Of a DNA stretch of 64,000 nt, positions 12,008 through 44,130 are shown one piece after another; position 1 is the first letter of the stretch; every line of letters begins with the position of its first letter. A model generated the notes under the pieces. The model searched no databases. It had not been told where the DNA came from and was given only the letters and a program-made list of their open reading frames with translations. The translations under genes were made by a program, and so were the position numbers. Source of the DNA: Lytechinus pictus (lineage: Eukaryota); assembly GCF_037042905.1 (NCBI RefSeq), contig NC_087251.1, positions 14,510,001 to 14,574,000 on the forward strand, written 5' to 3'.

Positions 12008-13035
12008 TCAGTAACGAGTGTGACCACCTCCTGCAGCAATAACGGCTTCACAGCGCTGTCTCATGGAGCTGATGAGGCGATTGATGTCTCTGACGTCCAG
12101 TGCATCCCATGCAGCCTCCAGAGCCACACCCAGCTGCTGCAGTCCAAGTGGATGGGCTTCGAGCTGCTCGAGACTCCTCCCCATCATGTCCCAGACGTGC
12201 TCTATCGGGTTTAAGTCCGGGGACCTCGCTGGCCACTCCATACGCTCAATCCCCTGGCCCTCAAGGAACTCGGTCACCACCCTAGCTCGGTGGGCACGGG
12301 CATTGTCATCCATGAAAATGATGTTTTGTCCCACATTTTCTGCAAATGGCACCACTATAGGTTCAAGGACCTCATCCCTGTACCTCACTCCTGTCATTGC
12401 TCCCCCTGGGACCACGTAGAGACGAGTACGGTTGGCGTAGGTGATGCCTCCCCACACCATGACGCTGCCTCCCCCATAACGGTCATGTTCTGCAATACAG
12501 GGGTCTGCAAATCTCTCTCCTGGTCGCCTCCAGACTCTCGAACGTCCATCATTGTGGTCAAGGGAAAATCTGCTCTCATCTGTGAACAGAACTCTACGCC
12601 ATTGCTGTCTGGTCCATCTGACATGCTCCCGGGCCCAGTTGAGACGAATTCTTCTGTGAGCAGGGGTGAGTGGGACACACTGAGCTGGCCGTCTGGCATG
12701 CATATTGGCTCTGTGAAGTCGGTTACGTTTGTTTGAGTGGAAACAATCACTCCAGTTGCTGCAGCGAAGTCATTGTTGAGGCGGCGTGCACTGTGAAAGC
12801 GGTTGCGGAGGCTGAGATTTGTCAAGTAGCGATCATCTCTAGGGGTTGTCGAAACTGGTCGGCCACTGCGGGGTCTCTCGGAGTATAGCCCTGTCTCTCG
12901 GTGTCTTTGATTTGCTCTGCTAATGACACTGTGTGACACGCCCATCATTCTGGCTACTCTTCGCTGACTGAGGCCAGCTTCCAGCATCCCTAGGGCTCTG
13001 GCTACATCTGTTTCACTTAGGTGGTGTCTTGGCAT
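12008..13035 (-). pseudogene. Tc1 transposase (DD34E), full length but frameshifted near 12728
   Basis: ATG at 13035 gives MPRHHLSETDVARALGMLEAGLSQRRVAR..RPRSGRP (HTH and GRP motif). The frame shifts at 'VSTQT' and the catalytic part continues FTDESRF, MDDNARAH, WPARSPDLNPIEHVW, with 34 residues between D and E. Confidence 0.9.
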
Positions 13036-13050
13036 TGCTGTTGTAGGCAA

Positions 13051-13788
13051 GTTTCCACTCAAACAATCCGTAACCGACTTCACAGAGCCAATATGCATGC
13101 CAGACGGCCAGCTCAGTGTGTCCCACTCACCCCTGCTCACAGAAGAATTCGTCTCAACTGGGCCCGGGAGCATGTCAGATGGACCAGACAGCAATGGCGT
13201 AGAGTTCTGTTCACAGATGAGAGCAGATTTTCCCTTGACCACAATGATGGACGTTCGAGAGTCTGGAGGCGACCAGGAGAGAGATTTGCAGACCCCTGTA
13301 TTGCAGAACATGACCGTTATGGGGGAGGCAGCGTCATGGTGTGGGGAGGCATCACCTACGCCAACCGTACTCGTCTCTACGTGGTCCCAGGGGGAGCAAT
13401 GACAGGAGTGAGGTACAGGGATGAGGTCCTTGAACCTATAGTGGTGCCATTTGCAGAAAATGTGGGACAAAACATCATTTTCATGGATGACAATGCCCGT
13501 GCCCACCGAGCTAGGGTGGTGACCGAGTTCCTTGAGGGCCAGGGGATTGAGCGTATGGAGTGGCCAGCGAGGTCCCCGGACTTAAACCCGATAGAGCACG
13601 TCTGGGACATGATGGGGAGGAGTCTCGAGCAGCTCGAAGCCCATCCACTTGGACTGCAGCAGCTGGGTGTGGCTCTGGAGGCTGCATGGGATGCACTGGA
13701 CGTCAGAGACATCAATCGCCTCATCAGCTCCATGAGACAGCGCTGTGAAGCCGTTATTGCTGCAGGAGGTGGTCACACTCGTTACTGA
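13051..13788 (+). pseudogene. Tc1 transposase, N-terminally truncated inverted copy (open catalytic domain; first ATG at 13093)
   Basis: Open frame VSTQTIRNRLHRANMHARRP...GGHTRY*, same 231-aa C-terminal protein as the minus-strand arm, lacking most of the DNA-binding region. Confidence 0.85.
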
Positions 13789-26746: not shown

Positions 26747-28514
26747 CTGTAGTTTTGAGGTGAAAAAACATGAAAATATGAGAGGGGACGATGTTTTTAA
26801 GACATTTAAAGAAAACAAGTGAACACAAAATTATTAAGATGACACATGGCAGAATTGTTATCATTTTCAGGTCTATGTGGGTGTTTGTGAGGGTGAAGAT
26901 GGGTGAGGGTGTGTGTGTGTGAGCATGTGTATGTTATTGCGTGTTTATGATATTTAACGTGATTTTACAAATGAATAATGTTCTACAAATGTAACCCTAC
27001 ATCGTAATAACATCCTGGTGTTTTACACATTAAATTCGAAACTATAAATCAGAGTGCATGGAAGTTGGTAGGAAAGAGAAAGTCAATGATAACATCCACA
27101 TGCATGTCCTGGTTGAGCTGTTTCTGGATTTGAATTCTGAGTTTCGATTTCGGCTCAGTATTGTCATGATTGTGGCGCTATTCAATGCACCATTGCTATC
27201 ATGATCGAAAGGAGAGAAAAATTAGAATGTGCGAAAGCACAATATTGTGGCATCAGTTCCAGTAAAGTTAGTCAACATGTCATTGATTTCCCCGTAGCTA
27301 TTGGCTTCCGACCTTTGGAGAGTTTCCTCTCAAAATTATGTCAAACTAACATGAGAGCTTGGGGCTGATTATCTTGAAATAGGAGTTTCAGGGCGTTCTG
27401 ATTTCAGTGATGATCAGAACCATTCATCAATGATCAAAATGTCAACCCTAAGGTTTTGCCACCTGGTGAGCCAACTAGAATGATCTGCCTATGAATAAAT
27501 CAATGATTGTCATTTCTACAGGGGTTGCAATGCTCTCCTTCTCTTTGCTCTTATTCCCTAAGAAATAAAAGACGAGGTTCCAGGAAGACCATCATCAACA
27601 ACAGAACATTTTTTTTCCCATACAGACCAGTATTCAAAATTATAAATAGTTCCTTGAACTATTGGGAGGAAGCAGGATAATGATATCCTCACTTTGCAGT
27701 TGATTGAGAGCGTAGGAAATCATCATGAAGGTCATCATCCGTTAAACGCATGTGTTTTGTAAGATCAGGGCGCTCCCTTATTATGGCGGGTTTTATTCTA
27801 TTCCAATTTCATCTACTGCAGAAATGTGAAATGTTTAATTGTCATATTCACAATTTATGCACCCATCACTTTACCTCATCCATTACAGGGTAAAAATTTC
27901 TTAGTTAAACGTTGTATTCTTATGTTATAAATACATGACCCTTGCTTCATATTACTAAAGGATGACAATTAAGATAACTTGCTGATATTGGGCATAAAAC
28001 CCTTCTGAATTGACTTTTTATCACTTATGTGTGTTGTTTAAGTACTTATAATTTCATACAGTTTGCTTTTAGGTTATACCGCCTATTTCATTGATTGATC
28101 CTGATTTCCACCGAGGGTAATTATACTTGGGCTTAATATGGCAAACGTTATCTGCAAAGTTTGGCCATCATGAAGTTTTACACAAGTCTAAATGAAAGCG
28201 GGCCATAGCTGTGAACTTCCAATGCCATTGATTAATCCGGTGAGCTGTAAACCTATCGATGGTGTTGTCTTGGAAATAACGTAATATCTTTGGTACGTAT
28301 GGAATCAGTTTCGTCAGTGTGACTGTAGTGTGCGGGATCTTATTGTAAAAGAATAACTTTTCTAACTCGACAGTCCTTATGATTTGGTGTTTGTCTCTTG
28401 CTCACTCATCATTTCGTTATGGATAATTAACCTCAATAAAATCATTAAGCAAGCATCGTCACTATATGCTATTAGAATAACAGTTTTCCTTTTCCTTTCT
28501 GCTTTTAATATTAC

Positions 28515-28766
28515 CTCGTATGTATCGCACCTCCCAAAACAGGCATCTAAAACAAGATTTTGTGGCCGGCATCCGGGTTTTTCTGCCTTGTATTGTAAGT
28601 ATTGCCTGACGTGACAGCCCAAACGACCATTTGCTTCTACTTTTGTAGGCCATATTGTGATATAGAGAACCAGCACTGTGAGGACGAGCGATGTTACCAT
28701 ACGATGGATGCGGTATGACGTCATTGTCGTAGTCAGTGTTTTTGTTGATTTCATCCTCGATTTCAT
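28515..28766 (-). CDS. GPHB5: Glycoprotein hormone beta-5 (thyrostimulin beta), first coding exon
   Basis: Hydrophobic signal peptide (MVTSLVLTVLVLYITIWPTKVEA), then GCHVRQY..KAEKPGC....VLDACFGRCDTYE and a GAG|GTAATA donor. Both exons together give 10 Cys, as in GPB5. Start is ambiguous (ATG at 28766, 28754, 28724 or 28700). An acceptor ccttag at 28775 suggests an upstream non-coding exon. Confidence 0.9.
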
Positions 28767-29401
28767 CACGTGATCTAAGGTTAAGCACAAATGAGAAATG
28801 TCGAAACTGTCATTAATTCCAATTCTAATAGAACTAAGTTTACGAATGAACATTTTGTATATCCTTAGCTATTAGTTTCATATTTCATAATAAAAGTTCT
28901 TAATTTGTTATTCTAATTAATGATGTTTTTCCCCAAAAAGATTGGTGGCTCGTGAGCAGCATTGGCATGGCGTGAAAATCCGCTGTCAATCCTTATTTGT
29001 GTGAACCTACGAGTAGGAAAACAAATAGGAATTTTCCAGCCATTTAGTCAACAGGCTTTAAAAGTCCACCAGGATTCACAGATAAAATGGCTACGGAACA
29101 AAGTTTATGATTATTACCATGATTATAAAGGAAGAGTAAGGAGGAAATGTGTTTGAGAGGGCTCAAAGGCAAGCTATATAGGTACAACCTGTGATCATAG
29201 ATGTTGTACACAGATCATGGACGTATATCTTTCATTAGATTCATACACAAAATAGAGAAATAAATAGGGGAAAATAAGATTTCAAATTGTGCAAAAAATA
29301 ATATTCAAACATTTATTGCATTGCCATTGAACTAAAATGAAGATACACTACGCGTAAAAAAAATATGAAAAAAACTTTGGTGGCGCACTGGACTATATAT
29401 A

Positions 29402-33300: not shown

Positions 33301-34605
33301 GTACAGGGGAAAAATCATTACCTGCAAATCCGCAATATAGCAATAGAGATATTTCAAATATCAAACAGATAAATATGTTGATCTTATCTGCGAGCGTTTA
33401 TTCACACTAATAAAATTACGACAATTGACTAATATATGACGTTTAAAATCGGTTAACTTGCTTGATTTGTGTCAAAAGAAAACTAGTAAAAAGCAATAAT
33501 TTGCGGTTGATTTGCTTCTAGCCTTTAATTATCAATGTCCCGTATATTCAATTCCTCTTAAAAGCGATGTGAATAATCTACTACAATTGTTTCTGACAGT
33601 TTTCAGTTCATTTTATTTTTTCTTATTTGTGAATTATAAAATTGAATATTCTTGCTTAACCACGTGGGCCATACGTTCACGCATGGCCCACGTAGAATAC
33701 ACCCCACCCACATGAAATATACTTATGAAACATCTATTTATGTACCTTCAATATTACTTCCTCAATCAGGAGTTTGGGAATACGTTTATGTCGTGCGGGT
33801 TCATCGTTGTTAAACAAATATGAAATTTATTCATTCGATTCAATGGGGACCCGCCTACCAGTATCATCACAAAACTTACAACAACGTCATTGATTTTGTT
33901 CCAGTATCAAAAAAAGTGTAAGATCGAATAATTCACTTTATCTTTTCTTATGAATATGAAGGTTTTGTATGGCAATTTCTTTCATAATACTAACCAATGA
34001 TCACTGAATCGTAAAAGAGGACGCTTTTATCTAAACATCCAATGATTGTGGTATCCGAAAAGTTACTTTTGAAAGATGGATAAAATAGACACGGTGAAGT
34101 GCAATTTTATGCATGTCCAGCTGGAATGACTTTTGACATTGATTATGTGACCTAAGACTCGTGCAAAACAATAAGTGATACTTGATTACTATTTCGTCCT
34201 TGTTTCATGGACAAGATCCATAAACTTTCAGTTATGATGACAATTCAAAAATCCCCCAGCATGGCCAAAGTTCTCTGACCCTAAATGACCTTTAGTGACC
34301 TGAAACTCACGCAGGATGTTCATTGATACTTGATTACTCTTATGTCTAAGTTTTATGAACTGCATCCATAAACACTCACAGTTATGATGGTAATTCAACA
34401 ATAAACCTAACATGACCAAAGTTTGTTGACCCTAAGTAGTTAAGGGATAGACCTGGGCTCACTTGACCTTTGACCTTTGAATCCGTAAGAATGCGTAAAA
34501 ATCCGTAAGAATCAAAGTACCTTCGCGCGCGTTTCATGATTACGTATAATTACAAGTTTGAACGTTAATTTTCTTCATTTCCCAACAAATAATCATCGAG
34601 TCAGC

Positions 34606-35256
34606 ATGAATATATTGGATATGTCCAACCGTTACGCTTGTTCACGATGCGATAAAACTTTTAGTAGGAAATATAACATGCAGAGGCATGAACAAATTGA
34701 GCATGATACTGGAGAAGAAACGAGTGAAGATGAAGAATCCGACCCATCCTCTCAAATGCAAAGAGTTGAAGAATCCAACGGTGATTCCGAAACGAGCGTA
34801 TCAGAAAGCGATGGACACGAATCGTCAATGACAGCAAACATGGAAGAAACTGAAGACAACCTCGCTTATCGAGGATGGTTAGAGCAAGCCATGACGGCCA
34901 CCAAGGACTTGAGAGACGAAAAATATCAGAAATACATCTCAGAAGGAATGGAAGAAGAAGACGCTAAAGCAAAGGCTCACGTGAAACTAATGTGGGCAGT
35001 CAAACGCATCTTTTTCGATCTGTACTCTCAGTTCTTGCAGCAGAACGTGTACCTCGAAGACGCTGACATCAATCATGAAATCGTGTCCGATCTCACGGAA
35101 AGATTAGAGAATGGCATGGAATTCCGGAAAGCCGTACAGAGAGTGTTAGCCAGACATGGTTCACAATTCGATGGTTTATTCCAGTATCAAGGTGACGATG
35201 ACGATAATGATGATGGTGGAGAAGAAACGGAGGGTGAAGATGGAACCTACAACTAA
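34606..35256 (+). CDS. Intronless C2H2 zinc-finger / acidic protein (216 aa) carried by the Polinton-like element
   Basis: Open ORF from ATG 34606 (or 34621): YACSRCDKTFSRKYNMQRHEQIEH (one C2H2 finger), D/E/S-rich linker, predicted helical C-terminal domain, acidic tail. AATAAA at 35559. Confidence 0.75.
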   Translation: MNILDMSNRYACSRCDKTFSRKYNMQRHEQIEHDTGEETSEDEESDPSSQMQRVEESNGDSETSVSESDGHESSMTANMEETEDNLAYRGWLEQAMTATKDLRDEKYQKYISEGMEEEDAKAKAHVKLMWAVKRIFFDLYSQFLQQNVYLEDADINHEIVSDLTERLENGMEFRKAVQRVLARHGSQFDGLFQYQGDDDDNDDGGEETEGEDGTYN

Positions 35257-35949
35257 AGGCACAAACATCAGCTTGTCGAATAATAATAATCCAAGAAAAC
35301 GCCCTCAACATAAATGACAGTTAGAACTTCATTGTGTTCATATTTTCTGAATGCCATCCATAGACATGTGTTACAATCCATTAAGTTAAGCGAAGAAAAA
35401 GAAAAACGAGAACTTCACTTTAATATTAATAATGGACAGTTAACAATTAGTTTTTAATTACAACATAATTTGAGAACATAACTTACATTATTTTACCTTT
35501 GTATCAAAATCTGTTGTTTATACAATATCTGAACCTATCTACATTATAAATGGAATAGAATAAATGATAATAATGATAAAATAATCATCCTTGACTGTAT
35601 AGTGTTTCATGTTATCACCATCTGTACTGCGGATGAATGAAGTTGATTGAAAGGAGTCATCTACTGGTTTAAATATGCATGTAGTATACTTTTGCGAGTC
35701 AGAGAGCCGTGCAGGTCATTTGAGATATGGAAGTATGTACAAAACAGTATGGAAAAGTCAGAGATTTTTGATGTGTAAAAGTCTGGAATGAGTAGAGTCT
35801 GAGATGTCACTATTATAATCACATTTTGGATTACCAATAATTGTTGTAATAAGAGACAGAGAGAGCCGGCTTTTACCTTGAATAGGATATCCCAAGTTCA
35901 ATGACGCGCGCTGGCCGTGCATGGGGTGATCAATTCGTGAACCGCGTGT

Positions 35950-36795
35950 GTAGAAATCATACGTCTGTTTCGTGCATCGTATCCTACACGTGACGATTGC
36001 GCCACGGTGGTGCAATACCGGGTAAAGGGTAATTCCCTGGGATGACATCACGGTGCTTACGTAGCCGGTGACGTCATGCGAGGCGGTTGACATATATCCG
36101 CCGAAAGGCGGAGAAAGATCCCTTTTTCAATAGGAAACTGTGCAGAAATCATACGTCTGTTTTGTGCATCGTATCCTATACGTGACGATTGCGCCGCGGT
36201 GGTGCAATACCGGGTAAAGGGTAATTCTATGACATCACGGTGGTTGCGCGGAGAAAGATCCCTTTTTCAATAGGAAACTGTGCAGAAATCATACGTCTGT
36301 TTTGTGCATCGTATCCTATACGTGACGATTGCGCCGCGGTGGTGCAATACCGGGTAAAGGGTAATTCTATGACATCACGGTGGTTGCGCGGAGTCATTAT
36401 CCAATTAAAATCGTGTCCCCGCGCTTCATTATCCAATTAAGATGGCGTCCCCACGCGGAGTCATTATCCAATTAAAATCGCGTCCCGCGCTTCATTATCC
36501 AATTAAGATGGCGTCCCCACGCGGAGTCATTATCCAATTAAAATCGCGTCCCGCGCTTCATTATCCAATTAAGATGGCGTCCCCACGCGGAGTCATTATC
36601 CAATTAAAATCGCGTCCCGCGCTCCATTATCCAATTAAAATCGCTTCCCGCGCTTCATTATCCAATTAAGATGGCGTCCCCACGCGGAGTCATTATCCAA
36701 TTAAAATCGCGTCCCGCGCTTCATTATCCAATTAAAATCGCGTCCCGCGCTCCATTATCCAATTAAAATCGCTTCCCGCGCTCCATTATCCAATT
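35950..36795. repeat. Subterminal tandem repeats of the Polinton-like element (140-bp unit and 66-bp higher-order minisatellite)
   Basis: gagaaagatccc at 36111 and 36251, plus a partial copy near 35950. From ~36390 cattatccaattaa subunits form a 66-bp unit (ORF repeat MASPRGVIIQLKSRPALHYPIK). Confidence 0.9.
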
Positions 36796-39186
36796 TCCTG
36801 TTTACCGCGTACCCAAAGGTCAAAGGTCATGATTGACCGGAAGGTGGGGTCACGGGGTCAACAGTGACCGGAAGTTGGGGTCAAAGGTCATGCGGTCAAA
36901 GGTCAAAGGTCAAGTGAGCCCAGGTCTATCCCTTAACTACTACCCTAAATGACCTTTGACCTTGGTCATGTGACCTGAAACTCGCACAGGATGTTTAGTG
37001 ATACTTGATTGCTCTTATGTCCAAGTTTTATGAACTAGATCCATAAACACTTAAAGTTATGATGGCAATTCAACAATTACCCTAACATGACCAAACTTTG
37101 TTGTCCCTAAATGACCTTTGATCTTGGTCATGTGACCCGAAACCTCGAGTGGGATGGTTTTTTTATACGACATTACCCTAATGTCCAAGCTTCATGAACT
37201 AGAGCCATAAACTTTTAAACTTATGATGAAATATCAAAAACTTCACATTGGTTGAGATTTCGAAGTTGATTTCCCCCAACGTGGTCTAAGTCTAGTGACA
37301 CTAAATGACATTTGACCTTGATCATGTGACCCGAAACTCACATTAAGTTATACTTGAGTATCCTTATGGCCGTGTTTCATGAACTAGGTCCATATACTTT
37401 CCAATTTATGATGATATTTCAAAAACTTATTTAACCTTGGTCAAGATTTCATGTTGATGAAGCCGTTGTCGCCGCCGCCGTCGGAAAAGCGGCGCCAAAA
37501 GTCTCACTCTGCTAAACAGACGAGGCAAACATGAGTGTAAGGATTTAAAAGCGTATCATGTTCATCTAGTCTTCATGTTTCCCATGTAGCCAAAACGGAC
37601 TATGAGATAGAGAAAGGAGGACGACTGAGAAGGCGTAGATGAAATCAGAGGAAAATGAGCACATCGAAAGCACAAAAGTAATACCTGATCAACTACTAGT
37701 ATTTTTAACAACTTTTCGGTTTAGAGATCTGTAGAATGTGGCTCAAAGTGCAACAACGGTTTTAAAGACAAGTACTTGATTGACAGATAACATTATGTTT
37801 GCGATCGTTATATATATTTTTTTTTAAATCAAGCGTTAATCTCACGCAAACTTGCACCGCGTGTAATCGTCGACCTCATGCGACAGCGTATAGCATTAAC
37901 CTTTTGTAAAGATAGTTTATACCAATTCTCTCTGTTGATTTTATTGTAATTTCTTTGGCCCACTTCACTGATCTTTTCACTACTTTCTCGAACTTAATAC
38001 ACCATTCACTCTCCCTCGACCAATTAAGAGTCTCGTATATTTTTTTTTTAATCTCTGATATCAATTTTAATTTATTATTTGGTTATAGAAGGGTTGATCA
38101 AAATTCCGGACATACTTTTAAGATTCGTTTCATTAATATATATATATATAATATGCTTTATTGAAAGTTTAACAAAAAACAGTTTGAAGTGCAGCGAGCC
38201 TGTCACTACCAAGTTGATGTGAAAATGAGATTAGACAGCAGATTGGCATTTATGATACCTATATAAGTATTTGGGCAACTTTCAATGACAGCTATTATAT
38301 GATTTCCTTTATCTTAACAACATTCCCATATGGGGGGTCTTATTTGATAGTGACATTTGCCTTTACAAAAGAATAAAAACATCACAATGCATACACTATT
38401 AATATCCAACAATTGTGAAAGCAAAACAAAATAATTTCCTGTATCATTTTGTTGGGGTTACATAATTGCGAATGGCAATGGCTAGTTTGGGATATGCGTA
38501 GATATGGATATTCAGAAATTAAGTGTTAAGCTGGATTGAACTAATTTATTCCCAGGCGATAAGAGATCTTTAAAGATTATCTACGCACTCTCTTGATTCG
38601 ACGGAAGATAAGACATTTAGAGCATTAGTCATTACGTGATCGTACAGTCATTGACTGGCACGATTTGACAAGTGAAAATGTATTTTGACGTTGTGAGCAA
38701 ATCCTCAGGTATTAAGTGACATTTTGTAATTATGACAATTGTCATGACAACGACAGCATTTTATAGAAAAATGGTGATGGTGCATTGCGATTGAGTATTT
38801 GTTAATGTCATTATTTAGTTTGGCAAGCTTTAAAAAAAATGAAATGGCAAACTGTGTTTTGGAACTGATAAGTTTTTATTGTCAAATCCCATTGTTTCTT
38901 TATTCATACAAGTCTTAAAACAATTGTATGTTGCTAATGGAATTATCAATACCAATAATGTCATTATGAAATTATGGTTGTCGTCGTTTACAACGATACA
39001 TGTTTGAAATTATTTACTTTATTCAATTTAAAAATACTTTCCATACTATTTAAATAATATATTTACAGCAATGGGTAGCTATTTGAAATGAAACAATAAT
39101 GATACTAGAAACAATCATGATATAAATATCATCGTCCATGAATGATGACAAAGAAATGTAAATGGTAATGATAGCTATTGAAAGCT

Positions 39187-39213
39187 ATAATAGTAGTAGT
39201 AGTAGTAGAAGTA

Positions 39214-39246
<33 letters not shown>

Positions 39247-39294
39247 ATAGTAGTGGCGGTGGTGGTGGTAGCAGCAGCAGTAGTAGTAGTAGTA

Positions 39295-39333
<39 letters not shown>

Positions 39334-39379
39334 ATAGTAGTAGTAGTAGTAATAGTATTGGTGGTGGTGGTGGTGATGA

Positions 39380-39418
<39 letters not shown>

Positions 39419-39445
39419 AAGTAGTAATAGTAGTAATAATAGAAG
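39187..39445. repeat. (AGT)n/(GGT)n microsatellite
   Basis: Direct reading. Confidence 0.95.
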
Positions 39446-40504
39446 TTGTAGAAGAGCAGTATTAGCTAGTATCATCACTATAACTTTTATTGCTTAGTTG
39501 TTTTTGTTGTTGTTGTCATAGAATGCTGTACTTAATTTATTGATAATGATAACAATAATAACGATGGAAAATTTGGTTCAATCTTATATCCGAAGCAGAT
39601 TAATTTTTGTTATAATTTGATCAATATTAACGCCTGGAAATGAGATATCAAATATCATAATTTATCATCATAGCAATATGTGTAAAGTCAATGAAAGGAG
39701 CTGTAGAGTACCCGTACCCTCATGGACCGGGATTCTGACCGGATACACGTGGCTTGACTGAAATGTTTTTTTGGAAGTATCTGCAGGCGTACTACCCAAG
39801 CTGGGAATTTGTGAAAGGACAATGACAATGACGCCATTCAAATTGAGCCACCCGATTTCTATTCTTTGTGAGATAAATTAATATCTAATTATTGTTTCCT
39901 GATTATCAGTATCTTGAATTTACCCTTACATTATCCCCAAACAAATACTAGTATTGAATTTTTATTTGATTAGTAATAATTCAGGTCGAGATATTAGATA
40001 GTGATTACCGTGCATGATGATAGAGACAGAGAAAGGGAGACAGAGGGGGAGGGAGAGACAAGAGGGGGATAAGAGAAAGAGGTAATAAGGGAGGGAAAAC
40101 AAGGGGAAAGAGAGAGCGGGATGAGTGAATGTTATATGAACATAATAGGAGACTGCTAATAAAACCAGTTCACTCTCAAATTTCTGAATTGTTCATTTGC
40201 ACCCCAAGAGCCGCTTATGATCTTCAACATAAATTTTATCTCAAGGTCCTGAATAACTCAGAAGGTACCTATAAATTCAAAAACGCCTGGCCTTAAAGCG
40301 TCTGGAGCAAAGTTATCTATAAAAGGCTTCAATTACAACTGCTCAAGTAAAGCAGCTACTCTCAGATCCCTTATAGTAATAACATACACATCCGAGGATA
40401 TAAAAATAATAATCCTGTTCCATTTTATCACGTTAAAATACTATTTACTTAAGAAAACTAAATATAAAGGGGCGGTGATTTGGAGTGTTGCTTTTATTTT
40501 CTTT

Positions 40505-41295
40505 AAACAAGTGGAATGCCTCTGGCGGTCGCACCTGCATCACGCGATTCAATATAGCAGCAGTGCTGACTTTGAAAACTACTATCAAATAATTATTCAC
40601 AAAAAACACCATTCATAATTATAATGAAACAATACTACGTTCATTGACATGTGACCTAAAACTTGTCAGTGAAACTTGATTACCCCCTATATCCACATTT
40701 TATACACTATATCTATAAAATTTGAAAGTAATGACAGCAATCTAATAATTACCTCTAAAATGGCCAAAGTTCAATGACCTTACATGACCTTTGACCTTGA
40801 TTATGTGACGCGAAACTTGCACAGGATGTTCAGTGATACTTGATTACTCTTATGTCCAAGTTTCATGAATCAGATCCACTTTCAAAGTTATGATGGTAAT
40901 TCAACAGATACCTCCATTATGGCCAAAGTTCATTGACCTTTGACCTTGGTCATGTGACCTGAAATGCGCACAGGATGTTCAGTGATACTTGATTACTCTT
41001 ATGTCCAAGTTTTATGAACTAGACCAATAAGCTTTCAAAGTTATGATGATAATTCAACAAATACCCCCAACTTGGCCAAAGTTCATTGAACCTAAATGAC
41101 CTTTGACCTTGGTCATGTGACGTGAAACTCAAGCAGGATGTTCAGTAATACTTGATTAACCTTATGTCTAAGTTTCATGAACTAGTTCCGTATATTTTCA
41201 GTTATGATGACATTTCAAAAACTTAACCTTGGGTTAATATTTGGTGTTGACGCCGTCACCGCCGTCGGAAAAGCGGCGCCTAAAGTTTCACTCTC
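40505..41295 (+). mobile_element. Helentron/HINE-like satellite-bearing repeat
   Basis: Starts aaacaagtggaatgcctctggc, has about 3.5 tgacctttgacctt units and the same 3' end as the 34120-37530 copy. Confidence 0.65.
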
Positions 41296-41640
41296 ACTCT
41301 TTTATACAGAAATGTCGCCTTTTTAGGGAATATACATTTCAATAGTTTCTTGATATATATCGATGTTTTTTTTTAAAAAAAAACTTAGTGGGAACCGAGT
41401 TTTTATATCATGGATATGACATTCATCTCATTTTGAATATGCACCAGCTTAATCATAGAAAGATAAACAGTTGGGATGCAAGATTACAAACTGAATTGCT
41501 TTGCTCATCGTTCGTTTTTATGGTTCATCCTTTTTCTTATTTGAATAGATAATTCAATTTCTCCTAGACTTCAGTTTTCTAGTTCACATTTCAACTGCTG
41601 TGTAATTGACTGCGTTTCCCCTAGTCATACTCCGTCATAC

Positions 41641-44130
41641 TAATTTATTTATTTATTTATTTATTTATTTCTGATATTTTGACAGGGTAGCCCATTCACC
41701 AATAAGTAGTGGTCTTCCATGGGGCCCTGAATAACAATAAACATATTTACAAAATGCATAACGTATGTACAGAATGTTACGGCATTAAGATTCACATTAG
41801 GATTTTAATGTAAAACGAAACATTAACAAACTTAGCAGCAAACAAAACGCAGACGGGCACTCGTTTGACGTATAATCAAATATCAATAAATCAAATTAAC
41901 TAAGAACGACATCTTGAAAATACTGATAATATACACCAAATCATCAAGGTCATGCTAACACAAAATACGCACAACAGTGGATGTTCCGCAAGTTATTTAT
42001 AAATTACAAGTTCTTCTAAACATTCTCTTAAATGAAATGACAGAAGGAGCTGTTCTAATTGAATTATCAAGCTTATTCCATTCAAATATTGAAGAAACAA
42101 TTGGACTACACTTATAACTATCAGTGCGAAACTTGGGCACGCGTAAATATCCACTGTCTCTCTGTCTGGTATGATGTTCATGTACATCATTTGGATTGGT
42201 TAAGTTTACCTGAAGGTAAGAAGGTGCTAAATTATGAACACATTTATATATCATCAAAACGCGACTGAGCTCAAATCGTTTGTCTAGTGTCATCCATTTT
42301 AGACTTGCGAACAAATCAGCCGACGGTGTGTCGTATGTCTTGTTTAATATTATTCTTGCAGCCCTCTTCTGAATTTTTTGCAGCTTAATTGTATGGGATT
42401 GAAATCTATTCGACCATACAGCAAAACAGTAATCAAATCTTGGCAACACTAAACTGTTATAAAGCAACTTTAAGGACTACACAGGCAAAGAACTTTTCGC
42501 TCTCTTTATTATGCCAATACTTTTCTGAGTAAGTTTACATACATTTTCAATTTGTTTTGACCATTTCAGTGGTTTATGGTTCATCCTTTTTCTTATTTGA
42601 ATAGATAATTCAATTTCTCCTAGACTTCAGTTTTCTAGTTCACATTTCAACTGCTGTGTAATTGACTGCGTTTCCCCTAGTCATACTCCGTCATACTAAT
42701 TTATTTATTTATTTATTTATTTATTTCTGATATTTTGACAGGGTAGCCCATTCACCAATAAGTAGTGGTCTTCCATGGGGCCCTGAATAACAATAAACAT
42801 ATTTACAAAATGCATAACGTATGTACAGAATGTTACGGCATTAAGATTCACATTAGGATTTTAATGTAAAACGAAACATTAACAAACTTAGCAGCAAACA
42901 AAACGCAGACGGGCACTCGTTTGACGTATAATCAAATATCAATAAATCAAATTAACTAAGAACGACATCTTGAAAATACTGATAATATACACCAAATCAT
43001 CAAGGTCATGCTAACACAAAATACGCACAACAGTGGATGTTCCGCAAGTTATTTATAAATTACAAGTTCTTCTAAACATTCTCTTAAATGAAATGACAGA
43101 AGGAGCTGTTCTAATTGAATTATCAAGCTTATTCCATTCAAATATTGAAGAAACAATTGGACTACACTTATAACTATCAGTGCGAAACTTGGGCACGCGT
43201 AAATATCCACTGTCTCTCTGTCTGGTATGATGTTCATGTACATCATTTGGATTGGTTAAGTTTACCTGAAGGTAAGAAGGTGCTAAATTATGAACACATT
43301 TATATATCATCAAAACGCGACTGAGCTCAAATCGTTTGTCTAGTGTCATCCATTTTAGACTTGCGAACAAATCAGCCGACGGTGTGTCGTATGTCTTGTT
43401 TAATATTATTCTTGCAGCCCTCTTCTGAATTTTTTGCAGCTTAATTGTATGGGATTGAAATCTATTCGACCATACAGCAAAACAGTAATCAAATCTTGGC
43501 AACACTAAACTGCTTTATAAAGCAACTTTAAGGACTACAAAGGCAAAGAACTTTTCGCTCTCTTTATTATGCCAATACTTTTCTGAGTAAGTTTACATAC
43601 ATTTTCAATTTGTTTTGACCATTTCAGTTCTTCATCTATCAAAACTCCTAAGCATTTGGTGAATTGAACTCTATTTATCAAATCACCGTTTAACGAAATC
43701 GTGAAAGAATCTATATTCCTGAGATTAGCACGAGAACCTATTATCATGACACAAGTTTATTTCAGTGTTGAGGACGAGCTGATTATCTTTAATCCATGCC
43801 ATGACCTTGTGTAATGCAACAGTTAATTTTTCTTCCAAAACTGTCGCATCATTCGCACTGACGGTAAGTGTCGTGTCGTCAGCGTACATATCTATGATAC
43901 CTTCATGAATACATTCAGGTAAGCTATTAACATATATTGAAAATAAAAGGGGACCTAGAATTTACCCTTGTGGCACGCCTAATTTGACGATTGAAGGGTG
44001 CGATTTGGCTCCTTTGAATTGTGTCACTTGTTGTCGATCAAATAAATATGATTTGAACCAAGTGATAGTCCTATTACTACAACCAATGCAAGCTAATTTC
44101 TTTAAAAGCAGCTCATGGTCCACGGTATCA
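41641..44130 (-). mobile_element. 5'-truncated L2/CR1-group LINE with its 3' part tandemly duplicated
   Basis: Minus-strand motifs 'DTVDHELLLKKL', 'GVPQG', YADDT (~43875-43890), 'KCLGVLIDEELKW', 'LYNSLVLPRFDYC..VW', 'LQKIQKRAARII'. (AAAT)n tails at ~41645 and ~42700. Repeat offset 1056 bp. Confidence 0.9.

Follow-up and report, generated by a model that had tools for sequence, protein, structure and literature searches.

A 2.5-kb insertion with Polinton-type ends and a single intact zinc-finger gene in Lytechinus pictus

How does a DNA element come to carry the ends of a Polinton, none of the core genes of one, and a single intact gene between those ends? The question is raised by an insertion at positions 34435-36941 of a 64,000-nt stretch of the Lytechinus pictus genome (GCF_037042905.1, NC_087251.1:14,510,001-14,574,000, forward strand). 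This stretch was analysed as a whole; it is called the window here, and all positions refer to it. The insertion is 2,507 bp long, far below the length of about 13-25 kb of an autonomous Polinton/Maverick, and its only substantial gene encodes a protein of 216 amino acids (aa) with a zinc finger and a conserved helical domain. We consider it probable that the element is a deletion product of a longer Polinton-type element, placed by a Polinton integrase that is encoded elsewhere or has since been lost.

The left (34435-34480, plus strand) and right (36896-36941, minus strand) terminal inverted repeats (TIRs) were 46 nt each and 100% complementary, with AGTAGT, the (AGT)2 end motif of Polintons, at the outer end. 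The first 23 nt of the TIR were found at only two sites in the window when up to 3 mismatches were allowed, and 0 of 100 shuffles gave a match. Exact 6-bp copies of ACCCTA, the target-site duplication (TSD), lay on the plus strand at 34429-34434 and 36942-36947. The insertion interrupted a dispersed or tandem host repeat with units of about 150-190 bp, whose left part covered 34125-34434 and whose right part, in register with the left flank, covered 36942-37450. When the element and one hexamer were removed, the host-repeat unit was restored in register with three neighbouring units. Loose read or contig ends before 36942 looked like the left flank in 4 of 4 public runs, in all of which the host repeat (34125-34434, 36942-37450 and also 40777-41229) had very high depth. 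A 14-bp TGACCT-repeat motif was common to the host repeat and the TIR, 7 bp from the insertion point; it may reflect chance or a target preference.

According to the available text of PMC8097293, the commonest Maverick signature consists of 5'-(AGT)2//(ACT)2-3' ends with a 6-bp TSD, and published Maverick TIRs measure 46-1,447 bp, with a mean of 402. Both the (AGT)2 end motif and the 6-bp TSD of Polinton/Maverick elements are present in the element. Because the two TIRs and the two TSD copies are identical, a recent insertion is supported. The original prediction, made from the window alone, had described exact 46-bp AGTAGT TIRs, the ACCCTA duplication with a host repeat continuous across the insertion, and a recent date; each of these points was borne out by the shuffles, the reconstructed empty site and the identity of the repeats.

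An autonomous Polinton is defined by a DNA polymerase B of the protein-primed kind and an rve integrase (PMC5499653, available portion). As a reference we used contig L005, whose Pfam content (DNA_pol_B_2, an A32/IVa2-like ATPase, an rve plus chromo integrase and a C5 protease) identifies it as a Polinton. None of ten open reading frames (ORFs) of L005 matched the whole 64-kb window by tblastn at E<0.1, and an ATPase-containing profile matched in the window only the finger and the helical part of the 216-aa ORF. Only one ORF of at least 130 aa lay within the element, and an Rfam search of 33500-41500 gave no match. The element is without genes for polymerase B, integrase, packaging ATPase, protease and capsid and is non-autonomous, as had been predicted; to move, it likely needs a larger relative.

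The remaining gene is an intronless ORF on the plus strand (34606-35256) that encodes a C2H2 finger, an acidic linker, a helical domain and an acidic tail. It was free of stops, and when the bases of the element were shuffled 300 times, no ATG frame reached that length (longest 190). The finger (residues 10-33; 34633-34704, plus strand) matched Pfam PF00096 with an E value of 2e-5, at the curated cut-off, and carries R, N and R at recognition positions -1, +3 and +6, so that C2H2 ligands and the conserved -1, +3 and +6 contact residues of a DNA-binding C2H2 finger are both present. By the finger code as we take it to apply, the family finger would read GCG and the window finger, with N at +3, GAG. 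The linker between the finger and the helices was acidic and disordered. The helical domain (residues 82-196; 34849-35193, plus strand) comprises five conserved helices that belong to no Pfam family, and gave a confident structure model (predicted local distance difference test, pLDDT, 93; predicted template modelling score, pTM, 0.73). Foldseek with this model found nothing at E<=0.001 in PDB and BFVD, and the best VIA-align result (Z 7.4 over 62 residues) was a common helical arrangement. Sequence searches of PDB and PHROGs with the domain gave weak rows only; the ESM Atlas held no usable match for the domain, and P0003 led there to generic C2H2 clusters only. As far as the model goes, the fold searches decide neither for a new nor for a known fold. 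The ORF scan, Pfam and the structure model agree with the predicted single 216-aa ORF of finger, acidic linker and helical domain, and the domain stays unrecognised after the Foldseek comparison that the prediction had proposed.

Searches with the profile brought up 77 proteins of similar length; at E<=1e-10 there were 230 representatives, and the weaker of these were in many cases ordinary multi-finger proteins. The helical domain was present in 221 of the 281 proteins fetched, cluster members included. In the 74 distinct stand-alone fingers, R occupied position -1 in 70 and +6 in 73, and D or N occupied +3 in 65; among 585 background fingers from fetched domain-free proteins the corresponding counts were 135, 257 and 245. 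Both relatedness and the use of the window finger as the search seed inflate the conservation. Even so, the conserved contacts are, in sequence terms, the pattern of a DNA-reading finger. They support the candidate DNA-binding regulator of the original prediction, and the protein is likely to be one.

The upstream regions of related genes were rich in TGCGT: contigs L001, L002 and L003 carry it 7, 5 and 11 times, respectively, within the 250 bases that precede the gene, compared with 1.2 per kb in the window. TGCGT-rich arrays resembling a 10-bp array of the window element lie upstream of the gene in all three contigs; the 125-bp leader of the window gene itself holds TGCGT only once. The ratio of nonsynonymous to synonymous substitution rates (dN/dS), which had been suggested as a check, was 0.11 between L001 and L002 over 186 codons (Fisher p 3e-11), and comparisons with the window gene were saturated. 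Judged from these codons, purifying selection holds for the family and is putative for the window copy. The stand-alone finger-plus-helix form appears from these alignments as a large, conserved and undescribed family without a Pfam model; it may coincide with an 'Adintoc' or 'Oncoid' protein.

Some features of the three contigs stand apart from the gene. Positions 1-324 of L003 form a palindrome with 102-bp arms, 98% complementary and full of TGCGT repeats, directly upstream of the homologous gene; the palindrome is perhaps a small inverted-repeat element, perhaps an artefact of assembly. L001 (1522-1705) and L002 (1-193) stop at the same base of a shared block. In L001 this block lies inverted on the downstream side of the gene; in L002 it has direct orientation, lies on the upstream side and makes up the left 193 bp. 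Possibly a one-gene element in another host has this block as its terminal repeat. The left flank of L001 was read as a fragment of a long interspersed nuclear element (LINE), a reading that found no Pfam support.

The link between this family and Polintons was provided by longer members. A domain-only profile search for longer proteins gave 7 matches, and ties to the packaging ATPase of the reference Polinton contigs L004-L006 were tested by tblastn. The ATPase was matched by 12 of 13 candidate fusions (7 of 7, and 5 of 6 further ones). Ten matched at 35-52% identity over 117-245 residues, with E values of 1e-24 to 1e-51, two matched by a short tail only, and P0206 had no match. The order in P0160 and P0275-P0277 was finger, ATPase, CCHC finger, helical domain. 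P0280 from Mya arenaria carries an ATPase tail, the finger-helix module and the C-half of an integrase (33-35%, E 1e-20), in that order; it is a predicted gene model and reflects a neighbourhood rather than a real fusion. A quick tree was made from 83 of 155 full-domain sequences left after thinning, from which P0281 dropped out. The stand-alone forms made up one group of 67 rows with no fused member and a Shimodaira-Hasegawa-like approximate likelihood-ratio test (SH-aLRT) value of 92, not starred. A Polinton origin of the element, as originally predicted, is supported by its ends, its TSD, the fusion of its gene family to a Polinton-type ATPase and the integrase neighbourhood. The contigs L004-L006 are filed in bacterial genome bins yet carry animal-type Polinton gene sets, and are probably host DNA within those bins. 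The polymerase frame of L005 starts with C2H2-like fingers that by eye resemble the window finger.

Between its gene and its ends the element is built largely of repeats. At the inner edge of the left TIR a 10-bp unit is repeated 3.5 times (34479-34513, plus strand), with 2 bases in common with the TIR; from its position and sequence this array is likely a promoter element, and it is also a candidate deletion breakpoint. The ORF is followed by an AT-rich non-coding stretch (35257-35900, plus strand; GC 0.32) with one AATAAA at 35559, a candidate 3' untranslated region. Next, at 35916-36393, come three GC- and CpG-rich units, each about 140-190 bp long and the second and third identical, with five matches to TGAC(G/A)TCA. 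They are succeeded by about 12-13 units of 31 or 35 bp (36387-36795), with CCAAT in each and a CpG observed/expected ratio of 2.0, and by a right subterminal stretch rich in RGGTCA hexamers (36801-36895) without a mirror copy at the left end. The long tandem arrays (about 35916-36795), absent from the original prediction like the 10-bp array, are confined to the right end. The CpG observed/expected ratio was 1.1-2.0 in the ORF and arrays versus 0.84 in the window, which indicates no depletion. We take the array motifs to be of the cAMP-response-element-like, CCAAT, YY1-like and nuclear-receptor-like types, their counts being given without a shuffle control. The CpG-rich, motif-bearing arrays might be an enhancer or an origin region.

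Read data were used to look for further copies. Read mapping was dominated by the flanking host repeat, and the joints, loose ends and pieces described are those among the matches listed. Copies 5-10% diverged tiled 34479-36150 in order (X1 contigs 1-5 and X2 contig 22), and the gene, the AT-rich part and the first arrays therefore travel together. X1 contig 1 had 1 difference in 448 bases over 34479-34926; its match broke off precisely at the inner border of the left TIR, and the 15 letters that the contig still has to the left of 34479 were unaligned to the TIR. X2 contigs were identical to the window copy over much of the ORF and may be the same locus in other animals. In organism C the ORF, the AT-rich part, the first repeats and the right end were all at high depth. 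Summed X1 contig depth was about 88 at the TIR tip and 10 at the ORF, about 8-fold; summed contig depth is not copy number, host-repeat contigs share a motif with the TIR, and the difference was given no weight.

Annotated proteins gave a second view of the copies, in records that leave element lengths unstated. Annotated copies carry the accessions XP_063970141.1, XP_063968459.1, XP_063968451.1, XP_063955525.1, XP_063967962.1, XP_063966467.1 and XP_063951735.1. The closest proteins named Lytechinus pictus were P0002 (93%, with an internal duplication) and the gene models P0013 and P0016, which join the first 90 and 65 codons of the finger gene, respectively, to host enzyme genes. The first 90 and 65 residues of P0013 and P0016 are equivalent to 34606-34875 of the window; the two are sialyltransferase-like and hydroxylysine-kinase-like models that start with the finger of the element; they may be mis-joined models or real chimeric transcripts from the element promoter. 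A sister subfamily, at 78-79% identity with the window protein, comprised six L. pictus accessions spread over four chromosome-sized contigs; the five distinct sequences compared were 98-100% identical among themselves. Because near-identical copies lie on several chromosome-sized contigs, gene-bearing elements have spread recently in the genus. In L001-L003 no Polinton gene was found within 400-700 bp on either side of the gene (one 23-residue match, E 0.016, was taken as chance), while 8 of the 9 intergenic gaps of L005 are 121 bp or less.

Expression was assessed from raw reads of RNA run X23, of which about 6 in 100 were used. The host repeat drew 11,330 first mates on one strand versus 93 on the other, which indicates that the library is stranded. 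First-mate depth over the ORF was 3-10 on the plus strand and 0.4-5.5 on the minus strand, and several of these reads carried variants of other copies. RNA sequencing had been proposed as a check on the gene, and the outcome was mixed: sparse reads do cover the ORF, but they come from both strands, with no start or end site, and a dedicated mRNA is putative.

How the element arose may be pictured as follows. The left tip of a longer element would have been joined to its right-hand 2.46 kb, a model put forward because the arrays are one-sided, the TIR is of minimal length, and the match of X1 contig 1 stops at the TIR edge. The deletion junction would lie at about 34480, where the TIR meets the 10-bp repeats upstream of the gene, and a junction there would have let the gene keep its promoter. 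The TSD means that insertion here was the work of an integrase, acting on the short unit or on its long parent. The protein would serve the element as an accessory regulator of transcription: the single finger would presumably read a GCG/GAG-type triplet and the acidic stretches would act on transcription, while the helical domain is one that zinc-finger-bearing packaging ATPases also have. The family most likely came under purifying selection at a stage when complete elements made use of the gene. Deletion before integration, with the unit moved by a helper, and deletion afterwards, in place, stand at roughly even odds, and the hint given by X1 contig 1 fits a one-off deletion about as well as a satellite mobilised in trans.

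Several observations weigh against the derivation from a Polinton or against parts of it. The TIR pattern was unmatched in viral contigs, to which the search for it was confined, and no polymerase- or integrase-bearing element was seen with the window TIR. No contig was found with the stand-alone gene beside Polinton core genes, and five protein scans of viral contigs gave no confirmed relative. The fused forms lie outside the stand-alone clade in the quick tree, and the tie to Polintons is therefore one at family level and not one of close kinship. By profile search L004-L006 are without the helical domain, and the genomes behind L004 and L005 gave a domain match in 0 of 2; the absence from these contigs makes the domain an accessory one in Polintons. 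What hints at a breakpoint is 15 unseen letters of a single contig, in which end clipping is possible. Among the first 65 residues, the window copy departs at 5 from the sequence on which three annotated copies agree. The X23 reads show no transcript start or end site at the ORF, and by the usual convention the larger strand share over the ORF is probably antisense. The model status of P0280 and the inflated finger counts, both given above, belong here as well.

Within the deletion explanation, two histories compete. A full-length Polinton may have integrated here and lost its middle in place, a young event that kept the gene intact in a locus now inert; we put this at a little short of an even chance. 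The one-sided arrays, the minimal TIR and the stop in X1 contig 1 are consistent with such a remnant, as is the weak two-strand RNA without a start site. In the available portions of the literature, 96% of vertebrate Maverick loci are degraded (PMC8097293), and C. elegans has remnants of Polintons in several sizes (PMC11414722). A loss in place fits less well with a junction that spares the upstream repeats and the whole gene, with the undepleted CpG of the ORF and arrays, and with X2 contigs identical over much of the ORF, though these are perhaps the same locus in other animals. The special case proposed in the original prediction is an established one-gene satellite family, in which the 2.5-kb layout is the replicating unit, helper polymerase and integrase spread it, and selection keeps the gene because it is useful to the satellite, for example in tuning or damping helper genes. 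We give this nearly the same chance as the remnant. Diverged copies in X1 and X2 that tile 34479-36150 in the same order and the high depth of the regions in organism C agree with a satellite, but identical tiling is expected if the gene sits at the end of a long parent, and X1 contig 1 does not run on into the TIR. The sister subfamily, with 6 annotated copies on four chromosome-sized contigs, also favours it, and so do the gene flanks of L001-L003, free of Polinton genes where L005 is tightly packed. When reverse-complemented, the right end of L001 equals the left 193 bp of L002, a relation that a terminal repeat around a one-gene unit would produce, but neither contig has the inverted block on both sides, nor AGTAGT ends. 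Among the copies listed, no second one was seen with both ends and another TSD, which speaks against a satellite.

The partner that moved the element could also have been of another kind. A short element with only an integrase and a zinc-finger ATPase, moving by cut-and-paste without polymerase or capsid, would make the stand-alone protein an ATPase-less version that keeps the front finger and the rear helical domain. The domain order of P0160 and P0275-P0277 and the integrase piece directly behind the module in P0280 suggest such an arrangement. We nevertheless judge it improbable: no such element was seen in the Lytechinus pictus data, the fused forms were seen as proteins only, and fused and stand-alone forms separate in the tree. 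That the insertion is a non-Polinton cut-and-paste transposon with a 6-bp TSD and a captured host zinc-finger gene is very improbable indeed. The short TIR, the 14-bp motif common to TIR and host repeat and the lack of any autonomous partner among the elements seen would suit it. Against it stand the (AGT)2 ends, which no other Maverick motif exceeds in frequency, and a multi-copy gene that has no introns and is linked to Polinton ATPase and integrase; the named relatives of the gene bear only automatic names based on low complexity. The derivation from a longer Polinton-type element is thus preferred. A wider proposal, rather unlikely to hold as a whole, is that one-gene Polinton satellites of 1.7-2.5 kb are widespread in marine invertebrates and borrow the polymerase and integrase of a helper; their regulator would be the ATPase-less counterpart of the helper's zinc-finger packaging ATPase, binding short GCG-type promoter repeats and steering or damping the helper.

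Other frames were found elsewhere in the window. Two near-identical Tc1/mariner-type transposase frames lie back to back on opposite strands at 12008-13788, as a palindromic or nested arrangement, and one of them matched DDE_3 and HTH_Tnp_Tc3_2 in Pfam. On the minus strand, 28377-28868 encodes a signal-peptide-like stretch and a cystine-knot-like exon with a weak DAN match (E 0.034), and may belong to a host gene of the glycoprotein-hormone or bursicon type. Also on the minus strand, about 1 kb apart, are two frames that are nearly identical to each other (41997-42476 and 43053-43514); they had no Pfam match and resemble the C-terminal end of a LINE reverse transcriptase.

The regulation of Polintons and the end sequences they require are largely untested. 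If the element moved as a unit, its 2.5 kb with perfect ends sets a limit on the sequence needed in cis, 46 bp at one end. Its gene defines a regulator family that is conserved, linked to Polintons and without a Pfam model, and several members of which annotation hides under host-like names. If same-sized copies exist, the element would count as the satellite of an endogenous animal DNA virus; otherwise it is an ordinary remnant in which a new gene family happens to come to light.

Repbase lists non-autonomous Polinton families. In the literature covered, which left most subscription papers, the 2006 founding paper and Repbase outside its scope, there was no report of a one-gene miniature Polinton or of the helical domain. 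The window gene is not described in the available portions of PMC3671162, PMC10748475, PMC11131425, PMC5753468 and bioRxiv 10.1101/2022.07.12.499685. A C2H2 gene was looked for in a nematode Polinton paper, with 0 occurrences.

The available descriptions of Polinton/Maverick elements (polintoviruses, 'adintoviruses'; PMC8097293, PMC8502044) share with the window element the (AGT)2//(ACT)2 ends, the TIRs and the 6-bp TSD. Intronless genes and accessory regions near the ends are further likenesses, and in other animals the window gene family is fused to or adjoins their ATPase and integrase. The window element differs in its size (2.5 kb versus 12.7-24.6 kb), in having no core genes, in a TIR at the lowest published length and in tandem arrays at one end only. 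PM, PZ, PW, 'Adintoc' and 'Oncoid', the last two described in PMC8502044 (available portion), are likewise small conserved proteins of unknown function. PM adjoins the ATPase gene downstream, where the fused module sits in relatives of the window gene; the ORFs behind the ATPase in the three contigs L004-L006, which from gene order are putative PM/PZ genes, were unmatched by the domain profile at E<0.01.

Incomplete relatives that keep Polinton ends, some of them apparently mobile, form a further comparison. They include the C. elegans remnants of several sizes (PMC11414722), Pieris elements without polB that appear still active (bioRxiv 10.1101/2025.02.07.637071) and Tlr1, sometimes termed a non-autonomous polinton (PMC5499653); the available part of an anole study records no non-autonomous copies (PMC3014272). 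As far as these portions describe them, such derivatives are larger, or keep core genes, or are decayed, and none has a single intact regulator-like gene between perfect ends.

Defective viral genomes of the deletion or copy-back type and Ds-type non-autonomous transposons keep their ends, have lost their enzymes and need a helper. By analogy, the window element may be compared with them, as it likewise keeps its ends without the enzymes; it differs in retaining a gene under family-wide purifying selection, and its use of a helper is putative.

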